A stretch of DNA of 4,548 bases from a virus. Lineage: Duplodnaviria > Heunggongvirae > Uroviricota > Caudoviricetes. Location of the stretch: IMG/VR virus record IMGVR_UViG_2671180296_000009, one strand, 5' to 3'. Shown one piece after another: positions 1 to 4,548 of the stretch. The position numbers were made by a program, and so were the translations under genes. Position 1 is the stretch's first letter, and each line of letters opens with the position of its first letter. Below the pieces are notes generated by a model, which was given only the letters and a program-made list of their open reading frames with translations, searched no databases and was not told the origin of the DNA.

Positions 1-656
<656 letters not shown>

Positions 657-674
657 ATTTTATAACCCCAATAC

Positions 675-700
675 GGGCGCCAGAAATGGCGCTTTTTTAT
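675..700 (+). terminator. Rho-independent terminator candidate between J and lom
   Basis: Stem GCGCCA (677-682), loop GAAA, stem TGGCGC (687-692), followed directly by TTTTTTATT (693-701). Confidence 0.6.
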
Positions 701-722: not shown

Positions 723-1322
723 ATGCGTAAATTATGTGCTGTTATTCTGTCTGCAGTAGTCTGGCTGGTCGCCGCTGGTACGCCAGCGAGTGCAGCAGAG
801 CATCAGTCCACACTAAGCGGCGGGTATCTTCAGTCCCATACTGATATGCCCGGAAACGATGACCTGAAGGGCATTAACGTGAAATACCGTTATGAGTTTA
901 CGGACACGCTGGGGCTGGTGACGTCATTCAGCTATGCAGGAGACAAGAATCGCCAGCTGACCCGTTACAGTGATACCCGCTGGCATGAAGATTCCGTTCG
1001 TAACCGCTGGTTCAGCGTAATGGCGGGGCCGTCTGTGCGCGTGAATGAATGGTTCAGCGCGTATGCGATGGCGGGTGTGGCTTACAGCCGTGTGTCGACT
1101 TTCTCCGGGGATTATCTCCGCGTAACTGACAACAAGGGGAAAACGCACGATGTGCTGACCGGAAGTGATGACGGTCGCCACAGCAACACGTCTCTGGCGT
1201 GGGGGGCTGGCGTGCAGTTTAACCCGACCGAATCCGTGGCCATTGATATTGCTTATGAAGGCTCCGGCAGTGGTGACTGGCGCACTGACGGTTTCATCGT
1301 GGGTGTCGGTTATAAATTCTGA
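723..1322 (+). CDS. lom: Lom outer-membrane beta-barrel protein (Ail/Lom/OmpX family), a lysogenic-conversion moron
   Basis: 199-aa ORF. Shine-Dalgarno GAGAGG at 713-718, 4 nt before the ATG. N-terminus MRKLCAVILSAVVWLVAAGTPASA/AEHQ is a typical Sec signal peptide with an AxA cleavage site. The translation is near-identical over most of its length to lambda Lom as I remember it (…GINVKYRYEFTDTLG…SFSYAGDKNRQLTRYSDTRWHEDSVRNRWFSVMAGPSVRVNEWFSAYAMAG…SLAWGAGVQFNPTESVAIDIAYEGSGSGDWRTDGFIVGVGYKF). Same position as in lambda, between J and stf. Confidence 0.93.
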   Translation: MRKLCAVILSAVVWLVAAGTPASAAEHQSTLSGGYLQSHTDMPGNDDLKGINVKYRYEFTDTLGLVTSFSYAGDKNRQLTRYSDTRWHEDSVRNRWFSVMAGPSVRVNEWFSAYAMAGVAYSRVSTFSGDYLRVTDNKGKTHDVLTGSDDGRHSNTSLAWGAGVQFNPTESVAIDIAYEGSGSGDWRTDGFIVGVGYKF

Positions 1323-1348
1323 TTAGCCAGGTAACACAGTGTTATGAC

Positions 1349-1377
1349 AGCCCGCCGGTTCAGGCGGGCTTTTTTGT
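1349..1377 (+). terminator. Rho-independent terminator candidate downstream of lom
   Basis: Perfect 8-bp stem AGCCCGCC (1349-1356) / GGCGGGCT (1363-1370) with 6-nt loop GGTTCA, followed by TTTTT (1371-1375). It ends about 10 nt before the stf start. Confidence 0.65.
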
Positions 1378-1386
1378 GGGGTGAAT

Positions 1387-3477
1387 ATGACAGTAAAGAT
1401 TTCAGGTGTCCTGAAGGACGGAGCGGGTGAGCCTGTCGTAAACTGTGCGATTGAATTGCGTGCCAGAAGAACCAGTCCGACAGTTGTGGTTAATATTGTG
1501 GCAACCTGTCTTACGGGAAGTGATGGCGGGTATACTATTAATGCTGAGCCGGGATTTTATGATGTATTTTTGTCCCGCTCAGGGCATCCTCCTGTAAAGG
1601 CGGGGGAAATTTATGTTGCACCGACAGATGAGCCGGATACGCTGAATGCTTTTCTGGATGCACCAAAGGAGGGTGATTTACGCCCTGAGGTAATGAAGCG
1701 TTTTGAGGAAATGGTAAATACCGTTGTTCGCTTGTCTGAGCAGGTGGTCAGTGACAGGGAGAGAGCAGAAACAGCGGCTGATGATGCAATCAATGCAGCA
1801 ACATCTGCGGCGGTTAGTAAGGATGAGGCAGAAGAGCTAAAAAATCAGACACAGCAGAGCGCCGAAGCTGCAGCCGGAAACGCACAGCAGACCGCGCAGG
1901 ATGTGGAGGCAACGGTCACCGCCCGTGATGATGCGGAACGTTTTGCGGGTGAGGCAGAAAACAGCGCACAGACATCAGGCACAGCGCGGGACGAATCAGT
2001 CGATGCCGCCGAACGTGCCCGCCTTTATCATAATGCCGCATCATCAGCTGCAACCAGCGCGGAAAATGCAGCAAATGCTGCACTCGGGCATGAAAATAAC
2101 GCTGCCGAATACGCCCGACAGGCTAAAGACAGCCAGGATGCAGGTGCAGACAATGCGCAGGAAGCGAAACAGTACAGGGATGAGGCGCAGCAGATAGTTG
2201 ATGACCTGAATGCAACAAATGCCAGCACGACAGAAAAAGGTCTGGTGCAACTGTGTAGTGATACGGACAACGACAGCGATGAACTGGCTGCCACGCCAAA
2301 GGCTGTCAAAGCCGTCATGGACGAAACGAAAACAAAAGCGCCACTGGACAGCCCGGCCTTCACCGGCACCCCAACCACCCCAACCCCACCGGATGATGCC
2401 GCCGGTCTGGAAGCAGCGAACGCAGCGTTTGTGCGCAAACTGCTTGCTGCGCTGGTTGGCTCATCGCCGGAAGTTCTGGACACCCTGAACGAGCTGGCAG
2501 CGGCGCTGGGCAATGACCCGAACTTTGCGACCTCAATGATGAATGCGCTGGCAGGCAAACAACCGCTTAATGACGTCTTAACGGCAATCAGCGCACTGAC
2601 GCAACGGGCAGATAATCTTCTGTACTTCAATACAGACGGGAATGCCTCACTGTCTCTGCTGTCAGAGAAGGGCCGCGCATTACTGGCGCATGACACGGCT
2701 GAAGCCATGCGCACGGAGCTTGAGCTGAACGCGGCTGCGACGATGGAACCCCAGAGTGATATCCGTGACCGCACACCGGGCAGGCTGGCCCTGTCCGGGA
2801 TGTATGGGTTTGGACAGGCATTCACCAGAGCCGAAGCTCTGTCATTTAACGGACAGGCTGATTTCGTTATATGGCTGCAGACAGTCACACCGGGGCGTTA
2901 TGCGGTCAGTATTGCGGACTCTTCCACGCTGCTGAAGGGGACCACGAAATTTAACGGTATCATTGATGTGATGTGGTCACCGTCTGATAACGACGAATCA
3001 GACACGGCGCGTAAATTCAAAACGCTGCTGTACTACAACCAGTATTACGAGGATGAGCACAACATACATTGCATGCGTTATCATTACAGTGATAACACCT
3101 GGACCGCAACATCAAACATGATTGTGTATGACGGCAACTCCCTGGCATATCTGATGTCCTCAACCGCCGGTAATGGTCCGTTCTCATATTACCAATACCC
3201 GGCACTTGGCGTGCCGATTATGGCGGTATATCAGGGAGAAAGTTTTGGTGAAAATGCTTCTCTGGGACTCGGTGATACTGTGCCGGGTTCCCGTCTTGGT
3301 CCTCTGGCCATGAGTGCACCGGTTAGTGATACAGGGACATACGCATCCTCACCGCAGGTTGTGATTGGCGGTGCCGGTGAATACAACTTCCCCGGTCGTT
3401 ACACGGCGCTTTCTGGCCTGGGTAACAATTATGGTACTCAGCGTGGCTTTATCGGTCTTTTTGTACGCATTGAGTAA
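1387..3477 (+). CDS. stf: Side tail fibre protein (Stf-like), mosaic: lambda-Stf-like N-terminus, Ala/Glu/Asp-rich shaft, conserved fibre motifs, divergent C-terminal putative receptor-binding domain
   Basis: Open frame 1381-3477. I place the start at ATG 1387 (GGGG at 1378-1381 as a Shine-Dalgarno-like element, 5 nt spacing); GTG 1381 is the alternative used by the ORF track. N-terminus MTVKISGVLKDGAGEPVVNC resembles lambda Stf MAVKISGVLKDG…. The central part carries motifs recurring in P2 gpH / Mu S / lambdoid Stf fibres: ATPKAVK (2287-2307), SPAFTGTPTTPT (2350-2385) and LNELAAALGNDPNFA. The last ~250 aa have no motif I recognise. Confidence 0.88.
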   Translation: MTVKISGVLKDGAGEPVVNCAIELRARRTSPTVVVNIVATCLTGSDGGYTINAEPGFYDVFLSRSGHPPVKAGEIYVAPTDEPDTLNAFLDAPKEGDLRPEVMKRFEEMVNTVVRLSEQVVSDRERAETAADDAINAATSAAVSKDEAEELKNQTQQSAEAAAGNAQQTAQDVEATVTARDDAERFAGEAENSAQTSGTARDESVDAAERARLYHNAASSAATSAENAANAALGHENNAAEYARQAKDSQDAGADNAQEAKQYRDEAQQIVDDLNATNASTTEKGLVQLCSDTDNDSDELAATPKAVKAVMDETKTKAPLDSPAFTGTPTTPTPPDDAAGLEAANAAFVRKLLAALVGSSPEVLDTLNELAAALGNDPNFATSMMNALAGKQPLNDVLTAISALTQRADNLLYFNTDGNASLSLLSEKGRALLAHDTAEAMRTELELNAAATMEPQSDIRDRTPGRLALSGMYGFGQAFTRAEALSFNGQADFVIWLQTVTPGRYAVSIADSSTLLKGTTKFNGIIDVMWSPSDNDESDTARKFKTLLYYNQYYEDEHNIHCMRYHYSDNTWTATSNMIVYDGNSLAYLMSSTAGNGPFSYYQYPALGVPIMAVYQGESFGENASLGLGDTVPGSRLGPLAMSAPVSDTGTYASSPQVVIGGAGEYNFPGRYTALSGLGNNYGTQRGFIGLFVRIE

Positions 3478-3491
3478 TGAGGAAATCAGGC

Positions 3492-4070
3492 ATGAAAATC
3501 AGAGCGGTGAAAGGTATCAGAAACGCACATTATCTTGAAAATGGTGCGGTTGACTGCGAGGTGTTATTTGAAGGTGAAACGGAGTTCGTCCTGTATACCG
3601 CCATACAGGATGATATGGCCCCGACAGGCCAGCATGTCTGGCAGGAGCTGCAAAGCGGGAAATGGGGCGAAATCGCCCCGTTCACCGTCACGCCGGAACT
3701 TATTGCAGCGGCAAAGGATGCCAAAAGGCGGGAAATTGAGGCATGGCGAGACAGTCAGGAAAACGTTGAGTTTATTTTCACGTTTGATGGCCGTCGTTTT
3801 GATGGCGGAAAAACCTCGCAGTCACGCCTTGCCCCCGTGGTTGCAACAGCACAGGCCGGACTGCTTCCGGAGGGTTTTTTCTGGACTGATGCGGATAATA
3901 ACAACGTCGTACTGACCAGGGAGAAACTTATTGCGCTGAACGATGCCATGATGGTGGCCATGGTGACGGAGGGTTTTAAAATCCACGAACGTCAGCGGGA
4001 GATGAAGGAACAACTGAATAATCTGGATGATTTGCGTTCAATCAGGGAAATGGTGATTAGCGATAATTAG
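3492..4070 (+). CDS. Putative tail fibre assembly chaperone (not lambda-Tfa type); function inferred mainly from position
   Basis: Open frame 3477-4070. ATG 3477 overlaps the stf stop (TAATG), but ATG 3492 has the better ribosome-binding site (GAGG at 3479-3482, 9 nt spacing), so I call 3492; 3477 remains possible. Sits immediately 3' of stf, where phages encode the fibre chaperone. It lacks the conserved lambda-Tfa C-terminal block that is present in the downstream remnant. Confidence 0.65.
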   Translation: MKIRAVKGIRNAHYLENGAVDCEVLFEGETEFVLYTAIQDDMAPTGQHVWQELQSGKWGEIAPFTVTPELIAAAKDAKRREIEAWRDSQENVEFIFTFDGRRFDGGKTSQSRLAPVVATAQAGLLPEGFFWTDADNNNVVLTREKLIALNDAMMVAMVTEGFKIHERQREMKEQLNNLDDLRSIREMVISDN

Positions 4071-4126
4071 CGGTCAATTCCGGGCTTTTTGGGCGCGCTT
4101 TCCGCCCAGAATTATACGTCAATTAG

Positions 4127-4375
4127 CCCAGAAAAAATCGCGAAGTTACAATTGGCCCGGCAACACCACTGAGTCATACAGCGAAACTTGATACTGTTCG
4201 TGTAGCCATAATGGAATGCTGCTCCACGCTGAATCTCCCGTTTGTTGATATGCGTGATGTGGTGAACAGCAGTAACAGGCAGCTGTATACAGGGGCTGAC
4301 GATGTTCACCCTAATGATGTCGGTCATGTTTTCGGGGGCTGCAGGCAGCAATGCGGGTGTTGCAGTTTTATGTGA
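4127..4375 (+). other. Short open frame (ATG at 4211, 54 codons) containing an SGNH/GDSL-hydrolase block-V-like motif; possibly the 3' remnant of an esterase gene or a chance ORF
   Basis: Frame-2 translation …[25 protein letters not shown]… contains D-x-x-H-P-N-x-x-G-H (nt 4298-4327), which resembles block V of SGNH hydrolases (consensus about DGxHPNxxGy, with the catalytic Asp and His). No blocks I-III are present and there is no room for them after tfa ends at 4070. Confidence 0.2.
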
Positions 4376-4548
4376 TACAGATAGCCAGTGAGCATATTGC
4401 GCCGCTTCAGGATGCTGCAGATCTGGAAATTGCAACGGAGGAAGAAAACTCGTTGCTGGAAGCCTGGAAGAAGTATCGGGTGTTGCTGAACCGTGTTGAT
4501 ACATCAACTGCACCTGATATTGAGTGGCCTGTAATACCAGAAGTTTAA
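4351..4548 (+). pseudogene. tfa: 3' remnant of a lambda-type tail fibre assembly gene (tfa); only about the last 57-60 codons are Tfa-like, N-terminal part absent
   Basis: Translation from about 4369 ([59 protein letters not shown]) matches the conserved C-terminus of lambda/Rac/Qin Tfa as I recall it (…[53 protein letters not shown]…). Codons before 4369 (MRVLQF) are not Tfa-like, and a stop precedes the ATG at 4351. Confidence 0.7.

Follow-up and report, generated by a model that had tools for sequence, protein, structure and literature searches.

The 4,548-nucleotide (nt) stretch of Caudoviricetes DNA held in IMG/VR as record IMGVR_UViG_2671180296_000009, which we call the window, carries the side tail fiber gene stf of a lambdoid prophage and, immediately downstream, a gene for a DUF4376 protein that we presume to be the chaperone of the fiber. 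A six-frame list of open reading frames (ORFs), combined with Pfam searches, gave the gene order J' - lom - stf - DUF4376 gene - relics (Table 1), with stf in its position directly after J and lom in the lambdoid tail operon. The last ~480 bases hold no intact gene and end in a 65-codon ORF (4351-4548) that reaches the final base. The identical sequence is present on NCBI contig LFZI01000008.1 (GCA_001264195.1), where a Mn-catalase/DUF892/DUF892/KGG block lies 3' of the window and is succeeded by ybhB and bioA-bioD. The window thus comes from the right end of a lambdoid prophage near the chromosomal bio operon. In the closest complete genomes, RefSeq labels the genes as gpJ, Ail/Lom protein, 'prophage tail fiber N-terminal domain-containing protein' and 'DUF4376 domain-containing protein'. 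The feature of interest is a real, intact and well-delimited stf-DUF4376 module, presumed to be receptor-binding, lying in a lambda-like prophage with two relics downstream.

Table 1. Features of the locus. Positions refer to the window unless another sequence is named.
Feature	Position	Strand	Basis or location
J 3' end (tail tip / central fiber), context only	1..546	+	Pfam PF12421 Ig_GpJ_C and PF09327
lom (Ail/Lom outer-membrane protein), context only	723..1322	+	PF06316 E=1e-121; Ail/Lom annotation in relatives
Left homology arm: lom-stf spacer with terminator-like hairpin 1349-1370 and first 35 nt of stf	1340..1421	+	lambda and RM9088 similarity limits
stf, side tail fiber, 696 amino acids, intact	1387..3477	+	ORF, gene calls, PHROG 2636
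Stf N-terminal tail-attachment domain	1387..1788	+	PF08400 E=2e-40; PDB 9e7m E=1e-20
Phage tail fiber repeat (collar), conserved shaft segment	2224..2343	+	PF03406 E=6e-14
Shaft-tip joint motif ELELNAAATMEPQSDIRDRTPGRLALSG, recombination joint	2716..2799	+	related and unrelated fiber matches end here
Stf tip domain, presumed receptor-binding, residues 456-696	2752..3474	+	no lambda, Pfam, NCBIfam or PDB match; 93 clusters
DUF4376 gene, 192 amino acids, presumed cognate tail-fiber chaperone	3492..4070	+	PF14301; PHROG 1141 full length
Presumed chaperone, N-terminal beta-rich domain, residues 1-86	3492..3749	+	identity matrices, alignments
Presumed chaperone, C-terminal DUF4376 domain, rare variant	3750..4067	+	identity comparison; predicted helices and short beta-hairpin (AlphaFold2)
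82-bp native 3' flank of DUF4376 genes; module right end	4071..4152	+	RM9088 similarity ends at 4152, SerU-LTIIb at 4151
82-bp flank copies in the two loci examined	L016 3001-3085; L017 (NCTC86) 3001-3084		near yciE-yciF-yciG
SGNH/GDSL hydrolase 3' fragment, relic	4145..4345	+	frame of 4073; PF13472 and tblastn
Rfam RF02111 IS009 (candidate prophage-associated small RNA family) match, overlapping the tfa relic	4311..4508	+	138.1 bits vs gathering score 117
lambda-type tfa relic, last 56-58 codons and stop	4372..4548	+	nt identity, PF02413, PGAP pseudogene
Mn catalase/DUF892/KGG block	source contig locus 4856-7069; second locus (L001) 10667-12880		beyond the window

Both PGAP and the source contig start stf at the ATG at 1387, with an in-frame GTG at 1381, and PHROG 2636 spans the full-length protein (E=4e-177). 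An original prediction, made from the sequence of the window, had described the Stf N-terminus as lambda-like and its center as carrying conserved fiber motifs, and both descriptions held. The N-terminus matched PF08400 as well as PDB 9e7m, a solved 94-residue tail-fiber N-terminal fragment, and shares 54% identity with lambda Stf across residues 1-117; the center contains the PF03406 repeat, with 52% identity to lambda Stf across residues 263-439. Likeness to lambda Stf is confined to these two segments (~53% protein identity). At the nucleotide level the shaft (2120-2799) is close to the second fibers of the P27/Rac-SA53 type (84-87% identity).

Beyond the shaft, lambda similarity ceases. 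The alignment to lambda orf-314 ends at its residue 54 (window position 2697), no lambda alignment extends past that point, and the tip is not of the lambda Stf / T4 gp37-type, Tfa-dependent kind. The last ~240 residues gave no sequence match in Pfam, NCBIfam or PDB; NCBIfam returned zero matches for any of the three proteins searched. A monomeric AlphaFold2 (AF2) model of the tip scored ~70-89 in predicted local distance difference test (pLDDT), and a fold search with it gave no reliable match. To this extent the claim that the tip matches no recognizable fiber tip stands, but the domain is no orphan: it falls within PHROG 2636, and an exhaustive phmmer search of 1.84 billion representatives recovered a family of 93 clusters (E<=1e-3, counted at 50% identity clustering). 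Nearly all full-length matches sit at the C-terminus of proteins of 250-1300 amino acids, and the tip is a genuine modular C-terminal domain belonging to a modest-sized family. A word-indexed search found 91 relatives, nearly all in E. coli or Salmonella. Many of these relatives are named 'shikimate transporter, partial' at NCBI (dozens of records, with the same name on RefSeq features), which looks like a propagated misannotation. Tips of the family all end in ...LF(V/M)R(I/V/T)(E/A/S/N) (window 3460-3474), and the last residues of lambda Stf are ...YIVRLA; this resemblance in the terminal strand between tips that depend on DUF4376 and tips that depend on Tfa may be accidental or reflect a common chaperone-docking element. 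A literature search for a receptor of, or experiments on, the tip family, phiP27 L56/L57 or chimeric Stf designs returned nothing specific.

The tip is consistently accompanied by its downstream neighbor. By tblastn, tip and DUF4376 genes were adjacent in lambdoid (SerU-LTIIb), P27-like (phiP27, Rac-SA53, pPE4) and rV5-like (Av-05) phages, and likewise in prophages of E. coli W and enterotoxigenic E. coli (ETEC), so that the synteny held across five phage backbones; in the window and 11 other loci the DUF4376 gene lies directly 3' of the tip gene. Among these phages, the fiber tip of PP818812.1 ('Actinobacillus phage vB_Apl-pPE4') is 93-98% identical to those of phiP27, Rac-SA53 and the ETEC prophage, and both domains of its presumed chaperone are 82-88% identical to theirs; Actinobacillus seems a doubtful host for pPE4.

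In the window the two genes are separated by 14 nt. An alternative start for the downstream gene, the ATG at 3477, was rejected: a GAGGAA Shine-Dalgarno sequence precedes the ATG at 3492, and both gene callers chose the latter. The protein has 192 amino acids, correcting the 193 first reported. It scored 69.8 bits against PF14301 (DUF4376; cutoff 25) and had no match to PF02413 (Tfa/Caudo_TAP) in the Pfam search, bearing out the earlier statement that it is not lambda-Tfa-like. Comparison of DUF4376 with five Tfa sequences by hhalign returned a probability of 0.3%, from profiles that were shallow (effective sequence number, Neff, 1.7 for DUF4376). The AF2 model of the protein (pLDDT 89.7) has a beta-rich N-domain (strands 6-14, 20-26 and 33-37) and a helical C-domain (helices 68-90, 107-121 and 143-176, with a short hairpin at 94-105), a fold unlike that of TfaMu (PDB 5YVQ). 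A fold search with this model found only generic helical-hairpin PDB matches, with no intramolecular chaperone (IMC) structure among the matches listed. We regard the protein as an analogue of Tfa, not a homologue.

For DUF4376 proteins of Alteromonas and Campylobacter phages, a fiber-chaperone role has been proven. Gp27 of the Alteromonas phage V22 is essential to make functional fibers (PMC7289586), and a DUF4376 gene 3' of the H-fiber gene of Campylobacter CJIE1 is required for the function of the receptor-binding protein (PMC7882524). In the Alteromonas phage A5, gp9 remains bound to its fiber, and its authors proposed a transient cap resembling intramolecular chaperone domains (PMC10579305). 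The last of these raises the alternative that the DUF4376 protein does something other than, or beyond, chaperoning folding and is retained as a distal cap or adhesin that shapes receptor recognition, like T2 gp38 or bound TfaMu. Folding can proceed without A5 gp9, which nevertheless remains attached (PMC10579305), TfaMu and Ur-lambda Tfa stay on virions (PMC9608196), PHROG and several GenBank records name these genes 'tail fiber protein', and the C-domain in the window is a rare variant. The requirement for V22 gp27 and the CJIE1 homologue in making functional fibers speaks against it, as does the sharing of residues 46-86 and the C-domain among very different tips, which suits a generic role better than receptor contact. 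We therefore think a retained cap or adhesin unlikely.

Comparison of the two proteins across 12 loci, which are phylogenetically non-independent, revealed how they vary together. Tip identity tracked the identity of the chaperone N-domain: the window and E. coli W are 70% identical in the tip, 90% in the N-domain and 39% in the C-domain, while for Rac-SA53 and E. coli W the corresponding values are 39%, 66% and 79%. The differences specific to a tip type cluster in residues 1-45 of the presumed chaperone, and residues 46-86 are nearly invariant. The C-domain of the window shares 37-47% identity with the remaining enterobacterial copies in the comparison, which are 62-90% identical among themselves, and 25% with that of the rV5-like phage Av-05. 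Tfa itself has been described as modular, with a specific N-terminal and a generic C-terminal part (PMC9608196). Because tip identity follows the N-domain and the differences are concentrated in residues 1-45, the 192-residue protein probably has a similar division of labor; the same pattern is a hint that its residues 1-45 encode tip specificity.

Focusing on the boundaries of similarity, we asked where the module begins and ends. The original prediction had placed the start of an imported tip-and-chaperone cassette at 2578 and suggested comparison with lambda to locate the junctions. Nucleotide similarity to lambda covers 1195-1421 (87.7%), stops 35 nt into stf and resumes only at 4373, so lambda offers no junction at 2578, and nothing else changes there; the matches to other fibers stop at 2729, 2762 and 2799. 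The prophage RM9088 shares exactly 1340-4152 with the window at 96.8% identity in a different backbone, with no lom upstream and no tfa relic downstream. Over 5426 complete E. coli genomes, the 5' part of stf (1425-2150) was found in 26 (median of 5 copies per genome), the tip and DUF4376 gene in 80, and the junction block representing the full arrangement (4060-4380) in 5. The module is rare; the J-lom backbone is very common and the adjoining tfa segment near-universal. Copies of the stf-DUF4376 module occur at 3-8 places per genome in 08-00022, 06-00048, OkiPb017xx, N96 and RM9088, and the multi-copy genomes form a small set, mostly bovine or food isolates; this suggests that the module spread or was homogenized among co-resident lambdoid prophages.

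The end of the lambda match at 1421, the segment shared with RM9088 and the rarity of the stf 5' part together indicate that the mobile unit is the whole of stf, the DUF4376 gene and the 82-bp flank, itself a mosaic. Tip and presumed chaperone do travel together, as originally proposed, in lambdoid, P27-like and rV5-like phages; the unit that moved is larger than the proposed cassette. If only the tip and chaperone (from ~2578) had been imported into an ancestral lambda-type stf, in one event replacing the stf 3' and tfa 5' ends, one would understand why protein similarity to lambda Stf lasts to residue ~439 and then disappears, why a true recombination joint lies at 2729-2799, and why tip and chaperone are found together in many backbones. 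Yet residues 1-439 are lambda-like at just ~53% protein identity with nucleotide similarity ending at 1421, the tip and the stf 5' part are equally rare, RM9088 shares the entire stf from 1340, no change occurs at 2578, and a fragment of another gene between the cassette and the tfa relic (see below) makes one event insufficient. Import of the tip and chaperone into a resident lambda-type stf is thus very improbable.

Within the mobile unit, several internal boundaries are apparent. Fibers of the P27/Rac-SA53 type match from 2120 or 2164 (84-87%) and stop at 2729, 2762 or 2799, corresponding to Stf residues 448-471, inside a motif, ELELNAAATMEPQSDIRDRTPGRLAL, that is conserved across the tip family. 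The joint motif is doubled around an inserted extra domain in three proteins (P0009, P0012 and P0014), in which ~110 residues lie between two QSDIRDRTPGRLAL copies. This duplication indicates that the QSDIRDRTPGRLAL motif acts as a recombination or duplication joint. The same fibers match again from 3510 or 3543 to 3748 (residues 7-86 of the presumed chaperone), and SerU-LTIIb matches additionally at 3990-4151; the DUF4376 gene itself is mosaic, with a joint at 3748. Loci of the E. coli W type match at ~79-82% from ~2338; the match is lost at ~3069-3075 with 2100-3100 as the query and extends to ~3760 with 2700-4070. At the right end, using 4071-4375 as query in a distant search gave matches in 717 E. 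coli genomes at 60-90% identity, nearly all listed matches involving only bases 1-82. In both loci examined (O157:H7 TR01 and NCTC86), this 82-bp flank follows a DUF4376 pseudogene at the ompW prophage end near yciE.

Downstream of the module lie two gene fragments in different frames. The first, reading ...VTIGPATPL...LNLPFVDMRDVV..., matched positions 124-176 of the 178 in PF13472 (E=3e-6, below the cutoff, being a fragment) and SGNH-domain proteins of T4-like phages (tblastn E=5e-15), and it carries the block V DxxH motif (DDVHPND). It has no start codon and no N-terminal GDS(L) catalytic Ser block, its homology beginning only at position 124 of PF13472; upstream lie a stop codon (4124-4126) and the DUF4376 flank. 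An intact donor gene was not found, the sole nucleotide relatives being a junk stretch between insertion sequence (IS) remnants and sitD in two genomes.

The second fragment is the lambda-type tfa 3' remnant noted originally, and its identification was upheld: window 4373-4531 is 97.5% identical to the lambda tfa 3' end, with the start of homology corrected to 4372/4373, and the translated product matched positions 76-131 of the 131 in PF02413 Caudo_TAP (E=4e-26). It is a relic rather than an intact gene, as had been supposed. By tblastn only Tfa residues 136-191 are present, with no trace in any frame of residues 1-135, the variable N-terminal fiber-binding domain; since there are also in-frame stops upstream, the tfa relic is truncated, not frameshifted. 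On the equivalent stretch PGAP/RefSeq records a pseudogene, 'tail fiber assembly protein, incomplete, missing N-terminus'. The 176-nt tfa 3' segment is present in 5003 of the 5426 genomes (92%), in up to 8 copies each. The well-aligned part of the overlapping IS009 match starts at ~4370 and is tfa coding sequence; the IS009 family may largely model tfa C-terminal domains. A 133-residue ORF on the minus strand (4112-4513) was rejected as a gene: it is antisense to both relics and had no matches.

A single replacement abutting the tfa tail had been envisaged. The cassette is separated from the tfa relic by the SGNH fragment, which implies more than one historical step: at least two rearrangements, or a single import of pre-scrambled DNA, are needed to account for the right side. 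Other prophage ends carry comparable stacks of 3' relics of tfa and DUF4376 genes. NCTC86 (L017, 1502-3000) has a pair of tfa 3' relics stacked with a single DUF4376 3' relic and a recombinase pseudogene, in what looks like a layered record of successive fiber-module replacements.

We observed the anatomy, synteny, breakpoints and truncations directly, and they are probably best explained by replacement of an earlier Tfa-dependent side-tail-fiber module by a complete, rare stf-DUF4376 module (about 1340/1422-4152), a reading in which we infer the chaperone role, the function of each domain, a change of receptor and the sequence of events. The N-terminal domain of Stf would dock on the tail tip, the shaft would end at the conserved joint (residues 444-470), and the last 241 residues would form the receptor-binding tip, of a family always co-occurring with a DUF4376 gene. 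The 192-residue protein would serve as intermolecular chaperone of this tip: its first ~45 residues, in the beta-rich N-domain, would recognize the tip type, and its helical C-domain with the short beta-hairpin would supply a generic trimerizing or capping function, in a design paralleling Tfa without homology. The module would have become mosaic because conserved segments act as recombination joints, namely the lom-stf spacer, the shaft with the joint motif, residues 46-86 of the chaperone, and the chaperone 3' end with the 82-bp flank. The two dead fragments, the SGNH 3' end and the conserved C-terminal third of a lambda-type tfa, may mark earlier gene content and illegitimate joins. Like the original prediction, we infer a host-range switch and an uncharacterized receptor.

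Several points weigh against parts of this explanation. The covariation of tip and N-domain comes from non-independent loci, and the model of the tip, a monomer, reaches no more than moderate confidence (pLDDT 70). Models of the Alteromonas proteins put the fiber contact in the DUF4376 hairpin, not in the N-domain, and the distal half of the tip is the most divergent from E. coli W; on both counts the unusual C-domain of the window might also be tip-specific. The tfa relic is nearer to lambda (97.5%) than J-lom is (87%), and genome 08-00022 departs from the window sequence within the relic (after 4506) and has other genes downstream. For these reasons the relic or its downstream DNA may have been exchanged separately, and the relic may not be an in-situ leftover of this prophage's own ancestor. 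That an old tfa tail was left behind is plausible, given the similar relic stacks elsewhere and a junction block that is nearly identical between genomes (see below), but the identity gap between relic and J-lom and the recombination inside the relic leave it unproven.

The closeness of the relic to lambda and the divergence of 08-00022 inside it, together with the abundance of the same 176 nt in E. coli and the usual position of DUF4376 genes as the last gene before attR, would fit a different order of events, in which the stf-DUF4376 module is the older resident and the tfa relic came in with the DNA that follows it (the stress-gene block and the prophage end), the near-universal tfa 3' segment serving as homology arm in recombination. 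Against this order stands the junction block 4060-4380, which is at least 99.7% identical in all five genomes having it despite their differing downstream DNA, so that the relic travels with the module side; moreover, homology-driven exchange in tfa would require a tfa already there. We consider it an outside chance, and continue to favor replacement of a Tfa-dependent module.

The pair combines traits of known systems. It resembles lambda Stf/Tfa (PF08400, PF03406, PF02413) in its location after J-lom, its N-terminal attachment domain and collar repeat, the small gene immediately 3' of the fiber gene, and the conserved Tfa C-terminal domain that persists as a relic. It differs in an unrelated tip (residues 456-696), in a DUF4376 partner without detectable sequence or fold relation to Tfa, and in a tfa reduced to its last 56-58 codons. 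The second fiber pairs of P27-like and Rac-SA53-like myoviral prophages (phiP27 L56/L57, Rac-SA53 tail3/tail4, E. coli W) share with it the PF08400 N-domain, the joint motif, the tip family and the DUF4376 gene, which in those prophages is the last gene before attR. The P27/Rac-SA53 pair matches that of the window at 84-87% nucleotide identity along the shaft and at 75-79% along the chaperone N-domain, but the tip is only 31-37% identical (against 70% to E. coli W) and the chaperone C-domain 37-47%; unlike those pairs, that of the window resides in a siphoviral lambda backbone after J-lom, without a preceding first fiber/Tfa pair. Alteromonas V22 gp27 and A5 gp9 and the Campylobacter CJIE1 protein are likewise PF14301 proteins of ~190-240 residues, encoded directly 3' of a fiber gene, and may also be alike in a predicted helical body with a beta-hairpin, whereas their partner fibers are unrelated and the N-domain of the enterobacterial proteins is distinct and beta-rich, with its first ~45 residues tracking tip type. 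Finally, like the tfa fragments of K-12 cryptic prophages and Rfam IS009 (RF02111), the relic is a truncated tfa that keeps the conserved 3' segment and exceeds the IS009 gathering threshold; relative to IS009, the match in the window is essentially tfa coding sequence.

Other parts of the locus deserve mention. The 3' end of J is 87.6% identical to lambda over 55-215. Over its C-terminus (~150-600), identity to N96 and 08-00022, the two closest relatives, falls to 55-79%, although both are at least 94% identical to the window over bases 750-1800 and most of the remainder (two 150-nt bins at 87-93%); the J C-terminal receptor-binding domain is a second, independently exchanged host-range module. 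Strong terminator-like hairpins follow J (675-694, plus strand) and lom (1349-1370, plus strand), the latter within the left homology arm of the stf module. Beyond the window, the block between the tfa relic and ybhB/bioA (Mn catalase, two YciE/YciF-like DUF892 proteins and a YciG-like KGG/con-10 protein) resembles the yciGFE-katN stress operon; it may be cargo of the prophage or else an islet next to the bio operon.

The module represents no new kind of system, as module exchange is the usual phage route to host-range change, and RefSeq already names all three genes. Mosaic fiber genes, co-transfer of chaperones and leftover tfa fragments are long established. Mildly new are the finding that in E. 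coli a lambda-type Stf is paired with a DUF4376 chaperone, the exact location of the joints, and the hint that residues 1-45 of the chaperone encode tip specificity. In lambdoid phages, among them the many prophages of Shiga-toxin-producing E. coli, adsorption range is determined by the side-tail-fiber tips together with their chaperones, which are also the parts swapped when phage-derived delivery vehicles are retargeted. The locus is a clean natural case of a lambda-type fiber using a DUF4376 chaperone in place of Tfa. It offers usable joints (the lom-stf spacer, the ELEL..AAT..QSDIRDRTPGRLAL motif, chaperone residue ~86 and the 82-bp flank) and points to the part of the chaperone that tracks the tip. 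More tentatively, and with the balance of our judgment on the doubtful side, the enterobacterial DUF4376 proteins may constitute a second class of tail-fiber chaperone that independently reached the Tfa layout, a short tip-specific N-module and an exchangeable generic C-domain, and that serves a ~240-residue tip family binding a receptor not yet assigned to any coliphage fiber. If this were true, the ~45-residue N-terminal 'address' could be used to predict or engineer the compatibility of tips and chaperones.

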